The translations under genes and the position numbers were made by a program. Positions 14,040 through 32,097 of a stretch of 64,000 nucleotides of DNA are shown here, in pieces. Under the pieces are notes generated by a model. That model was not told the origin of the DNA. It saw only the letters and a list, made by a program, of their open reading frames with translations, and did not search any database. How positions within the stretch are numbered: the stretch's first letter is position 1; each line of letters opens with the position of its first letter. The stretch comes from Armatimonadota bacterium (lineage in GTDB: Bacteria > Armatimonadota > UBA5829 > DTLH01): assembly GCA_038207085.1 (NCBI GenBank), contig JBBRAE010000003.1:32001-96000 (forward strand), written 5' to 3'.

Positions 14040-15133
14040 GACTGTTGTCCAACTTGCAACGAATAGAGATTCTGACCACAAGAGACAAAGAGGCTTGGAG
14101 AGCGGCTCTAGACGAGATCGGCACTTACAGCTTCTACCATATGCCCGAGTTTCACCGCCTTGCGGAGATCCGCGGCGAAGGCGAGGGCATTATGCCCGTT
14201 TACCGGGAAGACGGCTTCATAGCGGCCTTTCCCATGCTGCTCAGGGACATTCAAATCCATGGGCAGTCGACCGGTATGCGCGACGCGACCTCGGTTGCCG
14301 GGTTTGCAGGCCCGATAGCGTCAATGGCCGAGCCTCCCAAGGACATCGTCAGGCGCGTACAGAGCGCCCTGCACGAGTTCCTACACGAAACAGGTGTCGT
14401 GAGCGTGTTCAGCCGGATGAACCCCGTAGCAAGCCGCCCACGCCTGTTAGATGGCATGGGAGTCTGTGTGGAGAGGGGCAACTCTCTTGTAATAGACCTG
14501 ACCGCACCGCTCGATGTCCAGCTCGCCCGCTACAAGTCCGAGCGACGCAAGAAACTTCGTCGGCTAGAAGAGACCGATCTGACCATAGACTTCGGGGGAA
14601 TGGAGCACATCGACGACTTTGTGCGCATCTTCAGCCAGACCATGGACCGCACCAGCGCCGATCACTCCTACCGGTTCGACCGCTTCTACATAGAGTATCT
14701 GCTTCGGGAGATGCCGGACGTGATGCATATCGGAGTCTGCAAGCTCGACGGAGAAGTCATAAGCGTAGTGCTCGACGGCTTCTGCGGCGGGATTGTGGAG
14801 GGGTATATCGGTGGCACGAGCACGGAGCACCGCCAGATGTCTCCCTCTACCATCCTCTACGACCGCATCCGCGTCTGGGGAACCTCAATCGGCGCGAAGT
14901 CACTGCACGTCGGCGGCGGTGTCGGGGGCCTGAAAGACACAGTTTACTCCTACAAGCTCTCATTCGGTGCAAACGAAATGCCCTACTACACCTGGAGATA
15001 TGTGGTCGATCAGCCCGCCTACGACAAGCTCTGCCGGGAAGCAGGCGGCACGCCAACCGATGACATTCACTCGGAGTATTTCCCAAATTACCGGGACCCC
15101 GAGCTTGGAGCAAGAGAAACGGTGGGGGTGTAA
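14036..15133 (+). CDS. FemAB-like/GNAT (amino)acyltransferase, paralogue 1
   Basis: YSFYHMPEFH, DATSVAGFAGP, YRFDRFY, LHVGGG, YKLSFG, YFPNYR. Confidence 0.8.
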   Translation: MRLLSNLQRIEILTTRDKEAWRAALDEIGTYSFYHMPEFHRLAEIRGEGEGIMPVYREDGFIAAFPMLLRDIQIHGQSTGMRDATSVAGFAGPIASMAEPPKDIVRRVQSALHEFLHETGVVSVFSRMNPVASRPRLLDGMGVCVERGNSLVIDLTAPLDVQLARYKSERRKKLRRLEETDLTIDFGGMEHIDDFVRIFSQTMDRTSADHSYRFDRFYIEYLLREMPDVMHIGVCKLDGEVISVVLDGFCGGIVEGYIGGTSTEHRQMSPSTILYDRIRVWGTSIGAKSLHVGGGVGGLKDTVYSYKLSFGANEMPYYTWRYVVDQPAYDKLCREAGGTPTDDIHSEYFPNYRDPELGARETVGV

Positions 15134-15137
15134 CCAA

Positions 15138-16229
15138 TTGTCGCAAGCATCTTTTGAACTGCTGTCAACTGCAGAGTCGGGGCGCTGGAGGGAGACGCTC
15201 GAAGAGATCGGGGAGTATGACATTTATCACCTCCCCGAGTTCCATCGTCTGCCCGAAATGCGAGGGGAAGGCGAGGCGCTGCTGCTTGTCTACCGCGAAG
15301 GTGGCCGAGTCGCCGCGCTTCCCGTCATCATGCGCGACATAAAGCTTCCGCGTGATCTCGGAGCCCCCGTGCTCCGAGATGTGACAAGCGTCGGCGGCTT
15401 CGCAGGCCCGCTCGTCTCACCCAAAAGTGACGTCACAGAAATACGAGAAGGCTTCCAGCACGCTTTGAACGAGTTTTTCGCCGAGGCCGGTGTCATCACA
15501 GCGTATCACCGTCTGAACCCGATCATCGGCAACTTCGACCTGTTTGAAGGGCTCGGCGAGACTGTCATCCTCGGTATCACCGTGGCCGTGGACCTTTCGT
15601 ACTCGCCCGAGGAGCAGCTTAGTCGCTACAATCACGGGCACCTGGATGCGGTAAAACGACTGAAGAACCGCGGCGCCACATGCGAGCGGGTCGGGCCGGA
15701 GTATCTCGACGACTTCACCCAAGTCTATCACGAGACGATGACCAGAGCCGGCGCGCAGCCCGAGTACTTCTTCAAGCGGGACTACTTCGAATATTTACTT
15801 AACTCGATGCCCGGCGTGACCCAGCTTTTCATCTGCAACTACGACGGCAAAGTCATAAGCGCCGGAATCTTCTCAAAGACCGCAAATATAGTCGAGGGGA
15901 TGTACGCAGGAGGCCTGACGGAATACCTAAAGCTATCCCCGATCAAGATCTTAAACGATGCCGTTCGCGAGTGGGCAAACGAGCTTGGAGCAAAGTGGTT
16001 TCACATCGGCGGAAACGGAAGCGGCGCTCGGGACTCGCAGCACATATTCAGAAAGGGCTTCGGAGGCACGGAGCTGCCTTACGCTACATGGAGATACATC
16101 GCAGACTGCGGAGTCTACGGCGAACTCTGTGCGGAGCTTCGCCGCCGAGCAGGTGTGGACTCACCGGGAGGTTTCTTCCCCGAGTACCGCGACCCGTCCC
16201 TTGCACCCGTGCGGGAGGCTGTAAAGTAG
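15138..16229 (+). CDS. FemAB-like/GNAT (amino)acyltransferase, paralogue 2
   Basis: In-frame TTG just after the upstream stop; YDIYHLPEFH, DVTSVGGFAGP, YFFKRDYF, FHIGG, FFPEYR. Confidence 0.8.
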   Translation: MSQASFELLSTAESGRWRETLEEIGEYDIYHLPEFHRLPEMRGEGEALLLVYREGGRVAALPVIMRDIKLPRDLGAPVLRDVTSVGGFAGPLVSPKSDVTEIREGFQHALNEFFAEAGVITAYHRLNPIIGNFDLFEGLGETVILGITVAVDLSYSPEEQLSRYNHGHLDAVKRLKNRGATCERVGPEYLDDFTQVYHETMTRAGAQPEYFFKRDYFEYLLNSMPGVTQLFICNYDGKVISAGIFSKTANIVEGMYAGGLTEYLKLSPIKILNDAVREWANELGAKWFHIGGNGSGARDSQHIFRKGFGGTELPYATWRYIADCGVYGELCAELRRRAGVDSPGGFFPEYRDPSLAPVREAVK

Positions 16230-17356
16230 TGTCATTTATTGCAAATCGCGATATTGAAATACTGACTACACACGACGCGGAGCGCTGGAGCGAAACGCTC
16301 GAGCGAATCGGCGCGTACGACTTCTATCACCTGCCGCAGATACATCGTCTTGCCGAAATCGAGCGCGAGGGAGAAGCGGTGATGCCAGTCTACCGGGAAG
16401 GCGGCCACATCATCGCGTTCCCGATGCTCCTTCGCCGAATCGAAGGCTTTCCAGCGTTCGAGGGGCTGATGGACGTCTCCTCGATCTACGGCTACGCCGG
16501 TCCGCTTGCAACACCGGGGCTTCCGGCAGAAGTGCGGGACAGGTTCATCGCCGCCCTCGATGAGTTCTTCAGAGCAAGCCGAATCGTCACAGCCTTCTCC
16601 AGGCTCCACCCGATGATCGGCCAGACAGCCATGCTCACAGGTTACGGTGAAATCTCGGAGGTCGGCACGACAATATCGATCGATCTCACCAAATCCCCCG
16701 AGGAGCAGGTCGCGGGCTACCGAAAGAGCCACCGCTACGAAATCGGCAGGTTACGCAACCAGGGGTTCACCTGCAGACAGGCAGGGCCCGAGGCGCTTTC
16801 TGACTTCATCGACATCTACCACGAGTCCATGCGCGAAGTCGGGGCCGACCCCTACTACTTCTTCGAGAGAAGCTACTTCGAGTATCTTATGCGCGAACTC
16901 AGAGGGGTCATGACCCTTTTTGTCTGTGAGTTTGAAGGCCGCCCCGCGTGCGCCGCGATGTTTGCCAAGTGCGCCTCAATCGTGCAGTACCACCTCGCAG
17001 GCACACGCTCGGAGTTTAGAAAACTTGCGCCGATGAAGCTCCTGCTCGACACCGCGCGCGAGTGGGCGAACACGACCGGTGCAAGCGTGATGCACCTCGG
17101 AGGCGGCGTCGGAGCAAAGCAGGACTCGCTCTATGCCTTCAAACGGGGCTTCAGCGACCGGGAGCACACTTTCTCGGTCTGGAAACACGTCACCGCCCCG
17201 GAACTATACCGCGAACTATCCAGGGAGGCCGCCGCAGTGTCGGGAATGGAGCCCGAAAGCCCTTATTTCCCGTACTACCGGCACCCCGTTTTCGAACAAA
17301 TAGAACCAGAACTCGCCGACGCAATGATCGTTGGCGCAGAGGAGGAACGTTTGTGA
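16229..17356 (+). CDS. FemAB-like/GNAT (amino)acyltransferase, paralogue 3 (closest to the family consensus)
   Basis: GTG overlaps the upstream TAG and follows GGAGG; SIYGYAGP, FSRLHP, QYHLAG, MHLGGG, DSLYAFKRGF, YFPYYR. Confidence 0.82.
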   Translation: MSFIANRDIEILTTHDAERWSETLERIGAYDFYHLPQIHRLAEIEREGEAVMPVYREGGHIIAFPMLLRRIEGFPAFEGLMDVSSIYGYAGPLATPGLPAEVRDRFIAALDEFFRASRIVTAFSRLHPMIGQTAMLTGYGEISEVGTTISIDLTKSPEEQVAGYRKSHRYEIGRLRNQGFTCRQAGPEALSDFIDIYHESMREVGADPYYFFERSYFEYLMRELRGVMTLFVCEFEGRPACAAMFAKCASIVQYHLAGTRSEFRKLAPMKLLLDTAREWANTTGASVMHLGGGVGAKQDSLYAFKRGFSDREHTFSVWKHVTAPELYRELSREAAAVSGMEPESPYFPYYRHPVFEQIEPELADAMIVGAEEERL

Positions 17357-18501
17357 CAACTGCGATTCTTTCAACAGAATATTGCCCCATCATCTGCCCC
17401 ACCCTGCCCGATCCCGAGGAGATGCTTGGGGTTATAGAGAAAGCCTTCGGCTCCGGCAGAGTGACCGTAGGCGAGCAGGTAGCCGCGCTTGAGGATGAAG
17501 TCTCGGCGCGAGTCGACGTGCGAAACACCATCGCCGTCTCGTCAGGGACAAGCGGGCTTATGCTGCTCATCCGCGCGCTCGGGCTCCCCGAGGGGAGCGA
17601 GGTCATCACCCCGAGCTTCACCTTCGCCGCGACAAGCCACGCGCTTCTTTGGAACGGGCTTCGCCCCGTCTTCTGCGACAGCGACCCGCAGACCTTTACG
17701 ATGGATCCCGCCTGCGCGAGAAGTCTCATAACCGAGCGCACGTCGGCGATATATCCCGTCTGCGTCTTTGGCGTCCCAGGCGATATCGCGGCCTACCAAA
17801 CGATCGCCCAAAACTACGGGCTCGCGCTCATTTTCGACAGCGCACAGGGCATAGGGAGCACCTACCGTAGACGAGCAGTCGGAAGCTTCGGCGTGGGCGA
17901 GGTCTTCAGCCTGAGCCCGACCAAAGTAGTGACCGGCCTCGAAGGCGGGCTCGTCACAACCAATGACGATCAGCTCGCAACCCAGATACGCTACATGCGC
18001 GACTACGGCAAAGCCCCCGACGGCGAGGACATGAACTGGCTCGGGCTTTCAGCGCGAATGACCGAACTAAACGCAGCCGTCGCCCGCTGGAGCCTTGCGA
18101 GGCTTGACACCTGGGTTGCAAACCGCACAGAGATCTGTGACCGCTACCTTGAGCGACTCGGCCACCTTCCCGGCGTCAGCTTTCAGGCGATCCCGACCGA
18201 CCGGCACTCGTCGCGCAACTACATGGTAGTCCTGCTCGACCCCGCAGAGTCGCCGATCACCCGCGACGAGCTCTACCGGGCCCTAAAAAACGACGGCATC
18301 CAGACCAAGCGCTATTTCTACCCCGCGCTTCACAACCAGACGCTTTACCAGAGCGTCACGGACGGCCGCAAGCTGCCTATAGCCCAAGCGATAAGCGAGC
18401 GGAGCATCGCAGTGCCGATGTACTCGCACATGCCACTTGAGACGGTCGAGGCTATCTGCGACCGCATCGTCGCGCACTTTGAGCAGGTGGACGCACTATG
18501 A
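17353..18501 (+). CDS. DegT/DnrJ/EryC1/StrS family sugar aminotransferase
   Basis: GTG at a GTGA overlap; VSSGTSGL, TPSFTFAAT, IFDSAQG, FSLSPTKVVTGLEGG. Confidence 0.92.
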   Translation: MTTAILSTEYCPIICPTLPDPEEMLGVIEKAFGSGRVTVGEQVAALEDEVSARVDVRNTIAVSSGTSGLMLLIRALGLPEGSEVITPSFTFAATSHALLWNGLRPVFCDSDPQTFTMDPACARSLITERTSAIYPVCVFGVPGDIAAYQTIAQNYGLALIFDSAQGIGSTYRRRAVGSFGVGEVFSLSPTKVVTGLEGGLVTTNDDQLATQIRYMRDYGKAPDGEDMNWLGLSARMTELNAAVARWSLARLDTWVANRTEICDRYLERLGHLPGVSFQAIPTDRHSSRNYMVVLLDPAESPITRDELYRALKNDGIQTKRYFYPALHNQTLYQSVTDGRKLPIAQAISERSIAVPMYSHMPLETVEAICDRIVAHFEQVDAL

Positions 18502-19631
18502 GAAGCATTTTCACACTAATAATGATCGCACTTGCCACACTGCCCGCGCTTGCCGCCGATACGCCGGTCTACCAGGTCGGCCCCGAGGATGTGATCGGCG
18601 TAGTAGTCGCGCGTCACCCCGAGTTCTCCGGCGACTACACCATCCCCGTCGACGGCACGCTGACGCTTCCCGGCGCGGGACGAATCACCGCGGCAGGCAA
18701 GACACTTGCCGAAATCTCAGGCGAGGTCACCGACCGCTTGAGCGAACGAATCAAGGCCCCCGAGGTCACGGTATCGCTTCGCACAGCCCGAATGCAGCGG
18801 GTTTACGTGCTCGGCGCGGTGCACACCTCTGGGCTCTACGACCTGAAACCCGGCTGGAGAATCACCGAAGCGCTCGCCGCAGCGGGTGGAATCGCGGGCG
18901 GCATCGAGACGTCCGATTGCTCGGCATGTATCCTGCGGGCATCGACCGGCAAGCGCGAGACCTACCGCCTCGCCGATATCCTGCGCGGCCAGTCGAGCGC
19001 CGACACGCTTCTTCAGACCGGCGACGTAGTCACGATCGACGCCGACGAAACAGTGCCCGTATACGTCACCGGCAGGGTGAAAAACCCCGGCATCTACAGG
19101 CTCCGAAAAGACAGCGCGGGAGTGGTCGAAGCGATTACGCTCGCCGGTGGAGCCCTTGAAGACGCGGCCCTTGGCAAAGTCACAGTGGCCCACATCGACG
19201 GCAAGAACGAGACCGTCAACGCGGCGGGAGCGATCCTCGACGGAGGCCCCGCGCCCAAGGTCGAGATCAAAGCCGCGGACATGATCACCGTTCCGGCTGA
19301 GACCTCCCGCATCGCCGTCCTGGGAAACGTGAGTCAGCCCGGCTTCTTCCCGATCAGAGAGAACCAGAAGCTGACCCTCACCGACGCAATCGGACTCGCC
19401 CGTGGCGCAGACCCCCGCACAGGGAAACTGAGCGAAATCGCCGTCGTGCGCACGGATAACGGCAAACAGCAGAGGCTCGTCTTTGACCTCAGCAAGTTCC
19501 TGAAGACCGGGGACGCAAGTCAGAACCCTGAGCTCAAAGCCGGAGACGTGATCTTCGTGCCGAGGTCCAACAAGATCAACTGGGACTCGATCATGGGCTC
19601 GTTGCCGCTGGTCGGACTGTTTACAAACTGA
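18498..19631 (+). CDS. Polysaccharide export protein (Wza-like, Poly_export plus SLBB repeats)
   Basis: Signal peptide; YQVGPEDVI, VDGTLTLPGAG; repeated VYVxGxV..PG...AIxLAGG. Confidence 0.88.
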   Translation: MRSIFTLIMIALATLPALAADTPVYQVGPEDVIGVVVARHPEFSGDYTIPVDGTLTLPGAGRITAAGKTLAEISGEVTDRLSERIKAPEVTVSLRTARMQRVYVLGAVHTSGLYDLKPGWRITEALAAAGGIAGGIETSDCSACILRASTGKRETYRLADILRGQSSADTLLQTGDVVTIDADETVPVYVTGRVKNPGIYRLRKDSAGVVEAITLAGGALEDAALGKVTVAHIDGKNETVNAAGAILDGGPAPKVEIKAADMITVPAETSRIAVLGNVSQPGFFPIRENQKLTLTDAIGLARGADPRTGKLSEIAVVRTDNGKQQRLVFDLSKFLKTGDASQNPELKAGDVIFVPRSNKINWDSIMGSLPLVGLFTN

Positions 19632-19647
19632 AAGGGCGCCTACGCAG

Positions 19648-21828
19648 ATGATAATACGAAGAAACGATTTCCAGATTCAGCGCGTGCAGGAACCGAGTCA
19701 GACCATTCCTGAAGTATGGACGCCTCGGGAGCGCGAGGTTATGAGTATGAACGACTTTTCCGCGATGCTCAGGCGCAGAATCCTCACCATAGTCGTCGTC
19801 GCGGCAGTGATACTTGGCGCGGGAGTATACTACACGCTGACCAGGCCGCCGATATATGAATCGACGGCAAAGATGATGGTCATTACACCAAAGAATACCG
19901 CGGCAGTCGTAGGCGATGGCAGGCTGATAAGCGACCTTGAGGCCCTGAAGGGCGCAAGAAACGCCGACACTCAGGTCGAAATCATCACAAGCCCCGATAC
20001 CATCCAGGTCGCGGCCAAGTTGATCCCCGAAGACATCCGAAAGTACGGACTCGGCGGGACCGAGGTGCCGCCATGGGCCTATCGGGTCGTCAAGCGAAAG
20101 GAATCGGATATCATCACAGTGACAGGCAGGGCCTACACCCCCGTTGCTGCGGTTCAGATCGCAGAAGCGCTGATCAAGGCGCACTTCCAGAAGGACCTGG
20201 AGCGCAACCGACTGGCAACAAAACAGGCCCGCCAATACGCTGAGAACGAGATGCTCTCGGCCAAGAACGAGCTCTCCGCTGCGCGGATCCAACTTGCCCA
20301 GTTCAAGACCGTCACGGGTCTCTACGCACCTGAAACGCAGATGAACGCCTCAGCCGAGCGCATGACGACGCTCAACGACGAGCTCTCAGGCGCCCACGCC
20401 GACGTAGAAGCCGGACGAAGACAGATGGCCACGCTCCGCTCGCAGCTTTCCGGGCAGAGCGAAACGGTAGTGTCGGGCACCGTCGTCACTGACAACCCGC
20501 AGTTTACAGCCGCAATGAACAGAATCGACGCACTCCAGAGCGAACGGGCGCAACTGATACAGGAGTTCACCCCCACAAGCCGCGAGGTGCAGACGATCAA
20601 CGACCGCGTCCGGCGCGAAGAGGCAAGGCTGCGAAGCATCGCAAAGACGACGGTAAGTTCCGAGCAGATGGCGCGCAACCCTGTCCGGGAGAACGTAACC
20701 AACCGCTACATTGAGACGCTTGCAGCATACTCCGCCGCAACCGCCAGAATGAACGCGCTCGAACGCCAGGTGAGTCAAGGAAAACGGGCAGTCACGAGCC
20801 TGCCCGAACACGAACGCCAGCTGAACGAGCGCCAGCAGAATGTCCAACTTCTTCAGAGCAGGTACGAGTCGCTTTCAGGCAACTATCACACGCTGCTCCT
20901 AAATGAGCAGTCAATCATGCCAAGCGGTATGAAGTTCGCAAATGCGGGGTTGCCGACCAAGGCATCGTACCCGAACAAAATCGCAAACACCCTGTTCTTT
21001 ATGATCCTGGGCATCGCGTTCGGCATCCCCGTGGCGATCCTCGCCGAACGAAGGGACAGCCGCCTGCACGACCAAAACGTGATCGACCGCTCGACGGGGC
21101 TCCCGTCGCTTTCCGTGATCCCAAGGGCAAAGGCCGACTCCGTCCACATACGTGATGGCTCAAGCGCCGACGGAGCTACCATAGAGAGCTACCGGATACT
21201 GCGAAACAACATCCTCTTCGCATCAGCCGGAGATCACTTGAAAGTCCTTGCAGTCACAAGCCCCGGACGGGGTGAAGGCAAGTCGACAACCACAATGAAC
21301 CTAGCCGCGACAATGGCAATGGAAGGCAAACGCGTCCTGATGGTCGACGCCGACCTCCGCCGCCCGTCGCTCCACCGAGTGCTTGGAGTAAGCCGCGAAA
21401 AGGGCCTGACAGGCGTGATCGGCGGCAATGTGGCGCTTGAGGACGCGATAGTCGAAACCAAGACATCAAACGTCTTCCTGCTCCCGGCGGGGCCATCATG
21501 CCAGAACCCGGGCGAAACTCTGAACTCCGCACCAAGTCGCGAGCTATTCCGAAAACTTTCGGGGATGTACGACCTGGTCCTGGTCGACTGCCCGCCGAGC
21601 ACGGGGTTATCAGATGTGCAGATCATCTCGACGCTTTCAGACGCAGTGCTGCTGGTCGTATCGATGCACCAGTCGCTTCGCCCGCAGCTTGAGATCACCC
21701 TGCAGACACTCGCCCGAGCAGGCGCGCCGCTCATAGGAACGGTACTCAACCGTGTGGACATACGGTCTAGCGATTACTGCTACTACTACTCCCAAGACGA
21801 GTATAAACAGGACAACGAACAGAGCTAA
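19648..21828 (+). CDS. Polysaccharide co-polymerase/BY-kinase (Wzc-like)
   Basis: Two TM segments flank a coiled coil; ESYRILR, Walker A SPGRGEGKS, VDADLRRP, LVDCPP, C-terminal Tyr cluster DYCYYYSQDEY; true start may be 19741. Confidence 0.9.
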   Translation: MIIRRNDFQIQRVQEPSQTIPEVWTPREREVMSMNDFSAMLRRRILTIVVVAAVILGAGVYYTLTRPPIYESTAKMMVITPKNTAAVVGDGRLISDLEALKGARNADTQVEIITSPDTIQVAAKLIPEDIRKYGLGGTEVPPWAYRVVKRKESDIITVTGRAYTPVAAVQIAEALIKAHFQKDLERNRLATKQARQYAENEMLSAKNELSAARIQLAQFKTVTGLYAPETQMNASAERMTTLNDELSGAHADVEAGRRQMATLRSQLSGQSETVVSGTVVTDNPQFTAAMNRIDALQSERAQLIQEFTPTSREVQTINDRVRREEARLRSIAKTTVSSEQMARNPVRENVTNRYIETLAAYSAATARMNALERQVSQGKRAVTSLPEHERQLNERQQNVQLLQSRYESLSGNYHTLLLNEQSIMPSGMKFANAGLPTKASYPNKIANTLFFMILGIAFGIPVAILAERRDSRLHDQNVIDRSTGLPSLSVIPRAKADSVHIRDGSSADGATIESYRILRNNILFASAGDHLKVLAVTSPGRGEGKSTTTMNLAATMAMEGKRVLMVDADLRRPSLHRVLGVSREKGLTGVIGGNVALEDAIVETKTSNVFLLPAGPSCQNPGETLNSAPSRELFRKLSGMYDLVLVDCPPSTGLSDVQIISTLSDAVLLVVSMHQSLRPQLEITLQTLARAGAPLIGTVLNRVDIRSSDYCYYYSQDEYKQDNEQS

Positions 21829-21970
21829 AACTCACTTTGGGTGATCAATATATACTGCTGACGTGACAACACTTGTTTGATGGGGTAATGCTAAGGGGTT
21901 GATCAAACTGCCACTCGCCCGCAGTACAGAACAAAAACATACCCTTAGCGATGGAGGTCCGAGGAAGATC

Positions 21971-23941
21971 GTGGGACATAAGTCACGAATCCTTAAGTTA
22001 AGGCTGCGCGGCCCGGTAATAGCGCTAGTCATCGCCGACGTATTGGCGCTCGCCTTCTCCATCCTGGCGGCGCTGCTGCTTCGGTTCGACGGTGCCACAT
22101 GGCCCGATGTCTACAACCGCTACGTGGGAAACCACCTGACAAGTATGCCATTTGTCGCCGCCTTCTATATCGGCGCACTGGCAGTGTTTCGGATGTACAA
22201 ACGCGCGTGGCGGTTCACGAGCCTCGACATGCTCTGGGACGTGATCGGCGCAAACACCGCTGGTGTCGCCGGGATGATGGTCATCCAGATGATGTTCGAC
22301 GGCAGCCATTTCCCGCGCTCTGTGCTCGTGATGGTATGGGGGTCAGCTATCATGCTGACCGGCGGAATCCGGGTGTTCCTTAGGATGATGAGCGTGCTGC
22401 ACAAATACTCGGGCAAAGAGGACCGCCCATCAGTGCGGGAAAGCCGCCGCAAGCGGGTGGTTATCCTCGGCGCCGGGGCCGACGGCGCAAGCATCCTGCG
22501 AGCTATCCGGGAAGACCCGTACCTGGAATACGACGTGATCGGTTTTCTCGATGAAGACCCCAACAAGATGGGCGTCTACATCAGCAACGTGCGGGTAATC
22601 GGTTCGCTTGAGATGCTAAAGAAACTCGCAGACGATGGGACGATCGATGAGGTCATCGTCGCCCTTCCCGAAGACGCCTGTGAGAAGGTCCGCGAGTATG
22701 TCCTTGATTGCCGGGGCAAGCGCGTGGCGGTGAAGAAGGTGCCCCAGCTCCGGGATACGCTGATCGGCAAGACTGCGATCCAGATGGTCGACTTCGGGAT
22801 CGAGGACTTACTCGGACGCGCGCCGGTGAGCTCGAGCGTCGCGACCATTGGGACCTATATCAAGGGCAAACGCGTGCTTGTGACCGGTGCGGGCGGGTCG
22901 ATCGGCTCAGAGCTCTGCCGACAGATCATGCAGATGGAACCGGCGGCGCTGATCCTTCTCGGTCACGGTGAAAACTCGATCCACCTCGTCCACCAGGAGC
23001 TTCAGGCAAGGTACCGCAACCTGGCGGAGCGACTGAGCTACGTAATCGCAAGCGTATCGAACAAGAACCGAATCGACCAGGTGTTCAAACAGCACCGACC
23101 CAACATCGTCTTTCACGCGGCGGCCCACAAACACGTGCCCATCATGGAGCTGAACGAGCAAGAGGCCGTCAGCAACAACGTCCTTGGCACGCATCACGTG
23201 GCCGACGCCTGCGGGCGCTACGGAGTCGATCGGATGGTGCTGATCTCCACTGACAAGGCCGCCGACCCCTGCAGCATTATGGGGGCGACGAAGTGGCTTT
23301 GCGAGGAAGTGCTGCGCGCGTCTTCGCACATCCACCAGGGCACCTCCTACGTCGCAGTGCGGTTCGGCAACGTGCTTGGCAGCCGGGGGAGTGTTGTCCC
23401 CGTGTTCAAAGAGCAGATACGGCGCGGCGGGCCGGTGACTGTGACTCACCCGGACATGACCCGCTACTTTATGACCATTCCTGAGGCTGTTCGGCTGGTC
23501 CTTCAAGCGGGAGGAGTGGGCAGGTCCGGTGAGCTGTATCTGCTCGACATGGGGAACCCTGTAAGAATAGTCGACCTCGCGCGGGATATGATCCGGCTCC
23601 ACGGCTTCGAGCCCGATGTCGATATCGAGATCGCCTACACGGGAATGCGCCCAGGTGAGAAGCTTCACGAGACTCTGACGGCGTCCGGCGAGGACATTCA
23701 CCGCACCAACTGGGAGGGCCTCTACCACATCAAGCGCCCGCAGTACTTCGTGACCGACGAAGTCTTGGACGCGCTGGTGCATCTGGAGCGGGCAACATCA
23801 AGAGGGTCGTCAGCGGACGTCCGCCGACTGCTGAATCAGCTGATCCCAAGCCAGTGCACTGTCCCCGTCACAGAGTTACAGCAAGAGCTCGAAGAGAGCC
23901 TGGAACACGAGGGAGAATCCCCTCTGCGTTACCACATGTGA
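21971..23941 (+). CDS. Membrane-anchored UDP-GlcNAc 4,6-dehydratase (PglF/CapD/WbpM family)
   Basis: N-terminal TMs; VTGAGGSIGSEL, HAAAHKHVP, ISTDKA, MGATK, RFGNVLGSRGSV; frame is open from 21899. Confidence 0.92.
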   Translation: MGHKSRILKLRLRGPVIALVIADVLALAFSILAALLLRFDGATWPDVYNRYVGNHLTSMPFVAAFYIGALAVFRMYKRAWRFTSLDMLWDVIGANTAGVAGMMVIQMMFDGSHFPRSVLVMVWGSAIMLTGGIRVFLRMMSVLHKYSGKEDRPSVRESRRKRVVILGAGADGASILRAIREDPYLEYDVIGFLDEDPNKMGVYISNVRVIGSLEMLKKLADDGTIDEVIVALPEDACEKVREYVLDCRGKRVAVKKVPQLRDTLIGKTAIQMVDFGIEDLLGRAPVSSSVATIGTYIKGKRVLVTGAGGSIGSELCRQIMQMEPAALILLGHGENSIHLVHQELQARYRNLAERLSYVIASVSNKNRIDQVFKQHRPNIVFHAAAHKHVPIMELNEQEAVSNNVLGTHHVADACGRYGVDRMVLISTDKAADPCSIMGATKWLCEEVLRASSHIHQGTSYVAVRFGNVLGSRGSVVPVFKEQIRRGGPVTVTHPDMTRYFMTIPEAVRLVLQAGGVGRSGELYLLDMGNPVRIVDLARDMIRLHGFEPDVDIEIAYTGMRPGEKLHETLTASGEDIHRTNWEGLYHIKRPQYFVTDEVLDALVHLERATSRGSSADVRRLLNQLIPSQCTVPVTELQQELEESLEHEGESPLRYHM

Positions 23942-23995
23942 GAGCGAGACGGTCCTCCGGGGTATATAACTAATGAGTTTCAATGATTGTTACTA

Positions 23996-24038
23996 CCCCT
24001 CACCCTCACCCTCTCCCCCTAAGGGAGAGGGTGAGGGG
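23996..24038. repeat. REP-like palindrome family A, copy 1 (others at 58256-58304 and 61841-61888)
   Basis: CCCCTCACCCTCACCCTCTCCCCCTAAGGGAGAGGGTGAGGGG; all three copies begin TACCCCTCA and end TGAGGGG. Confidence 0.8.
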
Positions 24039-24078
24039 ATACCAACGAAACTCTGTCCCTACATTGGAGGACGCTGAA

Positions 24079-24366
24079 ATGACTATCATCGAGTTTCTAT
24101 TACTGCTCCTGATCGCGGCAGTCGCAGGCGCGATAGGGCAATCCATAGCGGGTTACGCGGCTGGGGGATTTTTGGCAGCTACGGCAATAGGCTTTATCGG
24201 AGCGCTTCTTGGCATGTGGATCGCCCGATCCACCGGGCTCCCGGAGCCGTTTGCAATAAACATAGGCGGCAGAACGTTCCCGGTGCTCTGGGCAATAATC
24301 GGAGCCGCACTCTTCTCTGCGATAATCCGACTCATCACCTCCCCGACAAGACGTTACCACGCCTGA
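24079..24366 (+). CDS. GlsB/YeaQ/YmgE family small membrane protein
   Basis: ATG after GGAGG; Gly-rich TM helices IGFIGALLG and WAIIGAALF. Confidence 0.8.
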   Translation: MTIIEFLLLLLIAAVAGAIGQSIAGYAAGGFLAATAIGFIGALLGMWIARSTGLPEPFAINIGGRTFPVLWAIIGAALFSAIIRLITSPTRRYHA

Positions 24367-24408
24367 TTCGTGTATTGGCCGGGTAAAAACCGGCCAATAC
24401 GCAATACA

Positions 24409-25737
24409 TCACTTGTGCTTAACCATCCCAAGATAGACATTCGGCACGAAGTGCGGGCTGTGCTCGGGTGTATGGCAGTCCTTGCACGCCTCGCGGATGC
24501 CTTTGGTTTCGTGCTTTGCCTTGTGGCCCGCACCGTGCGGCAGGACATCGGCGTGGCAGGACATACACTCGACCCCACCCAAGCCATCAGTCCCCTTGAC
24601 GCTCCGCTCGATCCTCCGATACATCTCGGAGTGGCATGGCAGACACTCGGGAAGCGTCTTGTTCTGCTTCTCAAGCGTGGTAAGCGCCGTCGCGTGCTTG
24701 GTCGTTTTCCACTGATCGTACTCCGCCTTGTGGCAGGACATACAGGTCTGGTAGCTGTAATAGCCTTCCTTGGGAGTCGACACATGCGTCTCAGTCGTGA
24801 TCGGACCCGGCGTCGACCCGGGGCTGATATTGACGATTCTCGGTGCCTGGAAGTCCTTGACCATCTTCAGGACATCGGCGTCCTCCGGGCAGCTTTCGTC
24901 GATGCCGACCCGTTTGTAGGTCTTCTTCTTGGTAGCACCGTTGATCTCGATGTCCACCTGTGCGATGGCGTTGCCCTGCACGCTGGTCGGGACGATCATC
25001 GTCTCGCCAACCATCTTGGGCTCTACGAGAATCATATTGCCAGTGCCGCCGAGGATGATATCCGGCGCACCGTAGCGTTTGGTGATCTTCTCGATCCACG
25101 CGTCCGACGCCACTTTGCCCTGGTCGAGCACGATCAAGACGTCCGACTTCTGCCGCGCTTCAGCGTAGACCTCATAGCGCTCTTTCAAGAGCTTATAGTC
25201 GTCGATAGCGCCATCGGGAAGCGTCCCAAATGAGACGACACCCACCTTCACCCCGCTGAGGTCGCGGATGATAAACGGCTTGGCGCCGGCCGCCTCGGGA
25301 GCGCCGAGGTTCACTACCGGCATCGACTTATCGTTCATGACCTTATAGAAACTGTCACCAAAGCGCAGGTCAGTCGGCCCGACGCCGACCGCCGAGTAGC
25401 CCATAGCTTTCAGCGCATCGATGACGACCTCAAGCTGACCCGTCTGGGTGTTGGTCATGTTGGGATAAGCGAGGTTTCCGCTTTCCACCGCAATTGTTCT
25501 GGGGTTTTCAGCTCTAAGCTTCTTTATGTAACCAGCTCGTCGAGGCAGACCGCCCGACTTGTGGCCGCCTCACCCACACGGTTCAAGCGTGCCGACCGTA
25601 TCGTTGCTCAAAATGACGGAGATTTTGGAAGGAAGCGAGCTCGCGGCATCAACCGCCCCCGCCACCCAAACAAAAGCCGCCAAAAGAGTCACGGCAAACA
25701 ACGCCCGAACCGCTGCAATAAGATATCTTTTAGTCAT
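24409..25737 (-). CDS. Secreted selenoprotein (Sec56 in a CxU motif): UshA/5'-nucleotidase-like N-terminal domain fused to a tetraheme cytochrome c (c554-like), 442 aa
   Basis: ATG at 25737 starts a signal peptide and reads ...ILSNDTVGTLEPCG-TGA(25572-25570)-GGHKSGGLPRR..., in frame with the ORF-track 24409..25488 frame. Four CxxCH motifs: CMSCH, CLPCH, CMSCH, CKDCH. A SECIS-like hairpin follows the TGA. Confidence 0.88.
25533..25569 (-). promoter_or_regulatory. Bacterial SECIS-like element
   Basis: The mRNA after UGA reads GGCGGCCACAAGUCGGGCGGUCUGCCUCGACGAGCUG. GUCG/CGAC and GGC/GCC stems close a GGUCU apex, with a CGGC/GCUG lower stem. Confidence 0.8.
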
Positions 25738-25773
25738 ATCAACCCACTTTGCAACAGAGTTCGTAACAGTGAC

Positions 25774-25802
25774 AGTCTACCCACAGTTGAGTAAGATGTC
25801 AA
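25774..25802 (-). promoter_or_regulatory. Sigma70-type promoter of the selenoprotein gene
   Basis: TTGACA-17 nt-TAGACT, ending 36 nt upstream of ATG 25737. Confidence 0.7.
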
Positions 25803-31922: not shown

Positions 31923-32097
31923 ATCGGGTCTCTCATACATCCACCCATACCAAATCATATCACCCTGAGGCTCTCGAAGGGTGCGATAGACAAATCAAAG
32001 GGCGTGTTACATACTCTGGAAGCTAACAGAATGTTCCAACCCTCGCCATTCCCAGCTAGCGACTAGCAACTGACAACTGGCGACTACCCCCTATCCC

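Follow-up and report, generated by a model that had tools for sequence, protein, structure and literature searches.

Selenoproteins of the UshA-like family, which carry a CxU motif (x, any residue; U, selenocysteine or Sec), were listed in the 2008 ocean survey (Global Ocean Sampling, GOS). The accessible part of that survey gives the entry as 'COG0737, UshA-like, CxU' with counts of 76 / 20 / 92, places the family among the few major ones without a known Cys-based redox motif, and reports it from oxic marine samples (PMC2398784). Reviews of 2022 and 2026 relist the family, and the later review, in its available portion, ties it to the profile NF041198, 'UshA-like (seleno)protein, PCGU' (PMC9312934, PMC13188914). 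As an initial annotation of the DNA discussed here had suggested, these listings, as far as their available text goes, assign no function to the family. A limited literature search found no functional test of it, and a search for a nucleotidase fused to a multiheme cytochrome returned nothing related. The term 'Armatimonad' is absent from the 2026 review (PMC13188914). Described here is a gene of an Armatimonadota bacterium whose product is, with little doubt, kin of NF041198. It is encoded on the minus strand of a 64,000-nucleotide stretch (positions 32,001 to 96,000 of contig JBBRAE010000003.1, assembly GCA_038207085.1), hereafter the window, and coordinates are positions in the window.

Another system of interest is MccSep/ExtKL (GSU2937-2936) of Geobacter sulfurreducens, described in 2026 as a periplasmic pentaheme selenoprotein polysulfide reductase; the available text of that work reports that a Cys ligates heme 2 and that Sec is essential for the reduction of both polysulfide and selenite (PMC13510729; PDB 9wt8). 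The two modules of the window protein also have relatives of known structure. The N-terminal domain resembles that of UshA and other 5'-nucleotidases (1ush, 3ivd, CD73), and the C-terminal domain resembles cytochrome c554 of Nitrosomonas (PF13435; 1bvb/1ft5). The active site of a true 5'-nucleotidase is situated where the N-domain meets a substrate-binding domain at the C-terminal end.

The explanation that best accounts for the gene as a whole, and that we regard as highly likely, is that it encodes an exported selenoprotein with four hemes, in which a Cys54-Gly-Sec56 loop is carried by a dead nucleotidase fold, with kinship to NF041198 and a presumed redox role. The frame runs from the ATG at 25737 to the TGA stop at 24411-24409, and the sole internal stop is the TGA at 25572-25570, codon 56 of 442. 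The list of open reading frames (ORFs) splits the gene into 25570..25737 (55 amino acids) and 24409..25488 (359 amino acids, with a GTG start at 25488). A public protein collection has only the 359-amino-acid product, P0002, which is 100% identical over 81% of the read-through protein, and therefore a gene caller did truncate the gene. The initial annotation had drawn the same frame, with its single TGA and the motif LEPCG-U-GGHKSGGLPRR, had seen that the ORF track begins at 25488 and that callers would cut the gene short, and had noted four C-terminal CxxCH motifs; all of this holds, the motifs being at residues 332, 365, 391 and 418. Its view of the gene as a genuine exported selenoprotein is also supported. 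The LEPCGUGG segment occupies residues 51-58, and full-length homologues have N-termini that can be aligned to the 55 codons preceding the TGA.

Selenocysteine is almost certainly the reading of TGA codon 56, judging by sequence comparison. The assignment is based on Cys at this column in homologues, TGA at the same codon in related loci, a hairpin found in the TGA forms only, and the presence of the Sec machinery in the genome. A protein search with the read-through query gave 173 matches at E <=0.001 among 8000 scored candidates, and the 19 homologues that were aligned are those among 120 listed matches whose coverage includes the N-terminal region. The TGA column is occupied by Cys in every one of the 19, in the context P-C-G-C-G/H-G; none has the Trp, Arg or other non-Cys residue that, according to the initial annotation, would have counted against Sec. 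Many other listed matches are 353-370 residues long and start just past the motif, as expected of truncated Sec forms.

A scan of one genome per species gave 25 related loci, mostly from Armatimonadota metagenome-assembled genomes. The codon aligned with codon 56 is TGA in 13 of these and a Cys codon in 12, a sample that leans to Cys forms because one of the two search patterns required Cys. Sec replaces the second cysteine, never the first, in all 14 TGA forms (the 13 loci plus the window). On a tree of 22 rows, from which five short rows had been dropped, Sec forms are interspersed with Cys forms; five changes of state are required, and three well-supported sister pairs differ in state. A broader sample of 301 genomes of the phylum includes 113 with a match at E <=1e-20, many to the heme domain only. 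The 52 near-full-profile matches in this sample comprise 27 with TGA as the only in-frame stop, one with TGA and TAG, 20 with no stop and four with TAA/TAG only, a tally made by hand in which the TGA positions are unchecked against codon 56. The possibility of a sequencing error had also been raised; the TGA at the same codon in other loci speaks against it, as does the identical stretch, TGA included and with 0 differences, on a contig that another sample of this study yielded.

Two side observations concern these loci. One of the 12 Cys-codon loci (L045:4130) reads P-W-S-C-G-G, with Trp in place of the first loop Cys, and its match ends at residue 344; this copy may be decaying or retooled. 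Tandem copies of the gene are present at L031 (296-1546, 1808-2938), L035 (3872-5353, 5372-6757) and L042, in several Armatimonadota genomes, and further ones were seen in the phylum sample (G288:C168, G238:C259, G126:C18, G002:C10). Both copies of the G288 and G238 pairs have an in-frame TGA.

Downstream of the UGA a SECIS-like hairpin (SECIS, selenocysteine insertion sequence) is predicted from comparative pairing. Its loop in the 14 Sec forms is GGUCU or GGUCUU, 22-26 nt from the U of UGA. Pairing is found in 86.7% of 98 stem cells of the TGA forms, a value reached by 0/500 shuffles, and the values in slid controls are 31.6-52.0%. One stem pair occurs as GC, CG, UA and AU; thus a stem-loop with compensatory change stands directly 3' of the UGA, as is looked for in a bacterial selenoprotein gene. 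The 12 Cys forms pair in 45.2% of 84 cells, which 246 of 500 shuffles reach, and they have no consensus structure. These Cys forms encode the same Gly-Gly-Leu-x-Arg-Arg peptide as the Sec forms. Nine bases, GGGCGGTCT, synonymous sites included, are invariant in 14/14 TGA forms and variable in the Cys forms.

The genome, assembled in 83 contigs and 100% complete by marker genes, has the genes needed for Sec insertion. A profile search found selA (572 bits), selB (353 bits) and selD (393 bits), all above their cut-offs, and tRNA-Sec, the selC product, is present with anticodon TCA (69.8 bits). Three cytochrome c assembly genes are found on contig C45. Both sets of genes had been proposed as a check by the initial annotation. 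There is no genome-wide recoding of TGA, because this codon terminates 562 of 1779 open frames of at least 300 codons (32%), including the selenoprotein gene itself. The selD match and the formate dehydrogenase-like matches have no in-frame stop or TGA, and the latter are below their cut-off. A crude scan of 9124 TGA-interrupted frames, filtered by hairpin, by GC content at third codon positions and by nearby Cys, gave out-of-frame-like noise besides the selenoprotein gene and is not a valid census. That scan showed no convincing second selenoprotein, and few other genes may depend on the Sec machinery of this genome.

The N-terminal domain appears as a nucleotidase fold that has lost its metal ligands. 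A Pfam scan of the read-through protein gave no Metallophos match, only the cytochrome c554 domain, and the C-terminal nucleotide-binding domain PF02872 is absent from the results. An AlphaFold2 model built on a 20-row alignment shows residues 35-300 well modelled, most 10-residue blocks having a predicted local distance difference test (pLDDT) score of 85-96, and the top Foldseek matches are N-domains of 5'-nucleotidases: 3ivd_A at E 5.7e-17, and also Escherichia coli UshA and CD73. The likeness to the 5'-nucleotidases thus comprises the N-domain fold (Foldseek E ~1e-15 to 1e-17) and a GG-L-x-R-R helix start; unlike them, the window protein has lost the metal ligands, has a cytochrome in place of the C-terminal domain, and has gained the Cys-Gly-Sec loop. 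A profile alignment to 3ivd places D46-T-V at motif I (D-x-H), G87-N88 at motif II (G-D), G120-P-T-D123 at motif III (G-N-H-E) and G231-T-G-N at motif V (G-H-x-H). The dimetal ligand motifs of UshA metallophosphoesterases (D-x-H, G-D, G-N-H-E/D, G-H-x-H) are therefore not preserved: five of six ligand positions in the alignment are now non-ligand residues, and only Asp46 is kept. The Cys-Gly-Sec loop directly follows the old first metal motif.

Among 17 distant members (20-47% identity) the only invariant N-domain residues are C54, C56, G62, G63 and G87. With the metal ligands lost, and the two Cys as the only conserved side chains, the N-domain is best seen, from its sequence, as a scaffold for the Cys-x-Cys/Sec loop. 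It should be pointed out that the TGA does stand at the second Cys of a CGC-type motif, as the initial annotation had it, but that the motif is a feature of this derived family only and not of UshA/5'-nucleotidases at large. The homologue P0041 (397 amino acids) has a Cys-Gly-Cys nucleotidase-like domain and a C-terminal region without heme motifs or a Pfam match; nucleotidase-like N-domains of this type therefore also occur with other partners.

The C-terminal domain matches PF13435 at residues 331-395 with 39.3 bits, above the gathering threshold of 20.8, and PDB profile matches are to 6i5b and to c554 (1bvb). It shares with c554 the four-heme module (PDB profile E 3.8e-8), and differs in that c554, with 211 residues, carries electrons as a free protein, whereas the module in the window protein comprises approximately 115 residues and is fused behind another domain. 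Outside the heme motifs, H348, H401 and H441 are the only histidines invariant in the 17 distant members, three for four hemes. Attachment of c-type heme requires export. Residues 2-33 are modelled by AlphaFold2 as one helix, in keeping with the predicted signal peptide or anchor, and the sequence suggests that the protein of 25737..24409 is exported.

With respect to family membership, the NF041198 profile (UshA_like_PCGU, 519 positions) matches both domains, the N-domain at profile positions 4-274 and the heme domain at 355-517, and the P-C-G-U/C motif is found in LEPCGUGG. The resemblance comprises P-C-G-U/C at the same place, a nucleotidase-like N-domain, four C-terminal hemes, and the alternation of Sec and Cys. 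The difference is that the window protein has no match to approximately 80 profile positions (275-354) between the domains and scores 208.7 bits as a whole against a cut-off of 275. Two Cys homologues, P0008 and P0019, score 206 and 176.6 bits, and the cut-off is reached in only one of 151 sampled genomes of the phylum. The gene thus belongs to a branch, widespread in Armatimonadota, that NF041198 does not name. Cys forms of this branch are named 'multiheme c-type cytochrome' by NCBI, and P0008, a natural Cys form, falls only in 'hypothetical protein' clusters of the ESM Atlas. As the profile covers both domains, the fusion of a UshA-like domain with hemes is the normal, catalogued architecture of the family, and the novelty implied by the words 'hidden' and 'fused' in the initial annotation does not stand. 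A second catalogued family, NF049981 (family 2), is similar in that its nucleotidase-like scaffold also bears a Sec/Cys motif close to the N-terminal end. Its motif is CxxU rather than CxU, according to the available text of the 2026 review (PMC13188914), and its model has 262 positions and so includes no heme domain.

Two groups of relatives can be mentioned. The same genome has a Cys-form paralogue (G000:C10:19200-20591, minus strand; L023:937-2382) of 482 residues with four hemes and the motif S-C-N-C-S-K-F-R-F-G-G. Its NF041198 score of 262.9 bits falls narrowly short of the cut-off, and it retains more ancestral phosphatase residues than the window copy. In addition, distant relatives (P0045, P0051 and approximately 60 further matches of 619-685 residues) have an E-P-C-G-C loop, four hemes, and a C-terminal DsbA/thioredoxin-like domain (PF01323 28.9 bits, PF13462 27.3 bits) that has one Cys in a C-P-Y/F-G motif and another close to its end. 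Their assignment to Poribacteria is based on source names for five of 120 listed rows. The presence of the DsbA/thioredoxin-like domain hints at thiol chemistry in the wider family.

How might such a protein function? SelB and tRNA-Sec would read UGA 56 as Sec, directed by the hairpin 15-34 nt downstream. The Cys54/Sec56 pair might then form a catalytic redox centre on the old active-site face of the fold, with the heme domain taking the place of the substrate-binding domain of the nucleotidases. Electrons would pass singly between the selenenylsulfide/selenol-thiol pair and the heme chain, and by way of this chain the periplasmic cytochrome pool. Possible substrates of the pair would be a small compound of sulfur or selenium, or a thiol/disulfide. 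A role as a periplasmic oxidoreductase appears likeliest because no side chains of the N-domain other than the two Cys are conserved, Sec always takes the place of the second, and the Poribacterial relatives have a DsbA-like domain; that the Cys/Sec pair communicates with the hemes in such a role is somewhat more probable than otherwise. What we infer are export of the protein, a redox function for the Cys-x-Sec loop, contact between this loop and the hemes, and which way the electrons run; the same applies to the Cys/Sec pair wired to a heme chain, for example for sulfur, selenium or metalloid chemistry, that the initial annotation had proposed.

Contact between the two domains was modelled by docking those of a natural Cys-form homologue, with four hemes, alongside three controls. 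The outcome was 'weak support', with a score of 0.49 compared to 0.02 for the best control, and runs agree in at least 80% of contacts, with a partner pLDDT of at least 88. The mark set for docking is reached by 116 of 157 solved complexes and by two of 215 mismatched pairs; at values of 0.60 or lower it is reached by 18 of the 157 complexes and by both of the passing mismatches. Some contact is to be expected in any case, because both domains belong to one chain.

Several observations weigh against this picture. The shortfall on NF041198 is one, and the score on NF049981 is also low (70.7 bits against a cut-off of 140, residues 40-269). An Rfam scan of 25300-25800 at E up to 10 gave no SECIS family, only two chance snoRNA/snRNA matches, and the hairpin region folded alone is no stabler than shuffles (z 0.09, -0.25). 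Since folding of the single sequence is unexceptional, the case for a SECIS element rests on sequence comparison and on a presumed resemblance between the hairpin loop, with G23 and U24, and the fdhF element of E. coli. Loop residues 55-58 have a pLDDT below 50 in the AlphaFold2 model, and the heme domain blocks range from 31 to 64. The heme domain can evidently work without the N-domain, because the genome also has a standalone module: a 142-residue c554-like four-heme cytochrome with a signal peptide (G000:C8:25752-26069; NF041198 positions 399-510, 110 bits). Finally, no conserved neighbour points to a substrate; setting aside the gene itself and its antisense frames, none is present in more than four of the 25 loci plus the window, and a 380-amino-acid neighbour present in four loci has no Pfam match.

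Other interpretations of the locus differ in how they deal with the TGA, the fold and the loop. If TGA were a nonsense mutation, a sequencing error or a recoded codon, the product would start at the GTG at 25488 or the gene would be dead, and the ORF list and the public gene call do give 359 amino acids from that GTG. This would leave unexplained why 13 other loci have TGA at the same codon together with a co-varying hairpin, and why conservation extends through the 55 codons before the TGA, which supply the export signal required by a c-type cytochrome; with the identical sequence from the second sample, the use of TGA to end 32% of long frames and a full Sec machinery, this interpretation is extremely improbable. 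It is nearly as hard to defend the protein as an active UshA-type 5'-nucleotidase or phosphoesterase that merely carries a cytochrome domain. The fold and the distant sequence similarity to 5'-nucleotidases are in its favour, as is the JGI label of some homologues, '2',3'-cyclic-nucleotide 2'-phosphodiesterase (5'-nucleotidase family)'. Yet there is no Pfam Metallophos match, the His of motif I, the Asp of motif II, the Asn-His of motif III and the His-x-His of motif V are all replaced, and a heme domain stands where PF02872 would be; we consider it very unlikely. Sec and Cys are good ligands for soft metals. This established chemistry raises the question of whether the Cys-x-Sec loop, in what is left of the dimetal pocket, is a binding site for a metal or metalloid ion that the hemes serve, in place of a selenenylsulfide pair. 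The loop does come directly after the ancestral first metal motif, and more of the ancestral ligands survive in the C10 paralogue (GD in motif II, and a His after two strands). But a conserved metal site would have just two protein ligands, because the invariant N-domain residues are two Cys and three Gly only, even Asp46 being variable, and non-ligand residues occupy five of the six aligned ligand positions. A metal site of this type is unlikely.

The remaining proposal is a sharper version of the redox explanation favoured above rather than its opposite. One heme lacks a conserved distal His; Cys54 or Sec56 would complete its coordination as sixth ligand, and the neighbouring Sec would attack S-S or Se-O bonds, making the protein a periplasmic reductase of polysulfide or of selenite-type compounds, as in MccSep. 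Three invariant distal His (H348, H401, H441) for four hemes, two loop Cys that are invariant in the 17 members, and Sec at the second cysteine in 14/14 TGA forms fit this proposal. MccSep itself is a mechanistic precedent: a periplasmic multiheme c-type cytochrome in which Cys and Sec act together, the heme-ligating Cys being paired with an essential Sec in the available account (PMC13510729). The two proteins differ in that MccSep has five hemes, has its Cys and Sec far apart and inside the cytochrome fold, and has no nucleotidase-like domain. They also show no homology beyond single heme motifs: the window protein scores 17.9 bits on NF040886, a family defined by at least 250 bits and five hemes, and has four CxxCH motifs, and the match to 9wt8 has an E of 0.024 on one heme motif only. 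Cytochrome c554 has a five-coordinate heme, and a missing distal His therefore needs no Cys ligand. The occurrence of the family in oxic marine samples, as given in the available part of the ocean survey (PMC2398784), and in sponge symbionts is a poor fit with sulfur respiration alone. For reasons of the c554 heme and the absence of sequence kinship, reductase activity of the MccSep kind is held to be a tentative possibility, less likely than not by a good margin. Equally tentative is the structural idea that the loop ligates or overlies the fourth heme in a Se-S-heme centre that arose independently of MccSep. If that were true, the large UshA-like family would add a second widespread class to the periplasmic heme selenoenzymes, with polysulfide, selenite or similar chalcogen compounds as substrates, and such enzymes would be found in mostly aerobic lineages (Armatimonadota, Poribacteria, marine plankton).

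The correction of the annotation is sound and useful, and the novelty is modest, as this kind of protein is already catalogued. This gene and many of its relatives are mis-called, an in-frame TGA being present in 28 of the 52 near-full-length matches of the phylum, and a lower NF041198 cut-off or a sister model would recover the whole selenoprotein branch in Armatimonadota. No function has accompanied the listing of the family since 2008, and the polysulfide reduction of MccSep gives a concrete assay to try. The close natural Cys/Sec sister pairs, for example L031/L035 and L030/L032, are ready-made comparisons, and it would be reasonable to begin the biochemical study of the family with the window selenoprotein.

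Table 1. Features of the selenoprotein gene and its flanks (positions in the window)
Feature	Coordinates	Strand	Details
Complete coding sequence of the selenoprotein	24409..25737	-	442 residues, then TGA stop 24411-24409; homologues share the same end
Signal peptide or anchor, predicted	25645..25737	-	Residues ~1-31: K3, R4, hydrophobic core, then VDA-AS (read from the sequence)
UGA selenocysteine codon (almost certain)	25570..25572	-	Residue 56, motif P-C-G-U-G-G; Cys in homologues, TGA in related loci
SECIS-like hairpin, predicted, GUCGGGC-GGUCU-GCC(U)CGAC	25539..25558	-	nt 15-34 from the U of UGA; comparative pairing
5'-Nucleotidase-like (metallophosphatase-fold) domain without metal ligands	24838..25635	-	Residues ~35-300; NF041198 profile 4-274, Foldseek
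Cytochrome c554-like four-heme domain	24412..24762	-	Residues ~326-442; PF13435, NF041198 profile 355-517
CxxCH heme motif 1	24730..24744	-	C332-H336; invariant
CxxCH heme motif 2	24631..24645	-	C365-H369; invariant
CxxCH heme motif 3	24553..24567	-	C391-H395; invariant
CxxCH heme motif 4	24472..24486	-	C418-H422; invariant
Sigma-70-like promoter match TTGACA-17-TAGACT	25774..25802	-	10/12 consensus matches
11-bp perfect inverted repeat between convergent gene ends	24372..24400	.	-23.1 kcal/mol, z -4.38, 0/200 shuffles as stable

Two features flank the gene (Table 1). The promoter proposed in the initial annotation is present as a sequence; but two such promoter-like sites are found in 1.8 kb, compared to 0.9 expected in shuffles, and thus it can be looked at as a consensus match only. 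The 42 nt that separate the selenoprotein gene from a convergent gene for a small membrane protein (23983-24366) contain the inverted repeat, which is probably a two-way terminator. For want of a T-run after the repeat, it was missed by a terminator scan.

Neighbours of the C10 paralogue give few indications: 10 of 12 ORFs scanned in an 18-kb stretch have no Pfam match, and an ORF of 1034 residues beside the paralogue (L058:4362-7466; G000:C10, minus strand) has none at E <=1e-4. The neighbours in the window itself look unrelated to the selenoprotein gene and consist of a polysaccharide biosynthesis cluster, the small membrane protein and an NAD synthase. The cluster, at 14967-23941 on the plus strand, appears to be for a surface polysaccharide and includes two FemAB/GNAT-like genes, a DegT-type aminotransferase, a Wza-like exporter, a Wzz/tyrosine-kinase-like protein and a Polysacc_synt_2 dehydratase.

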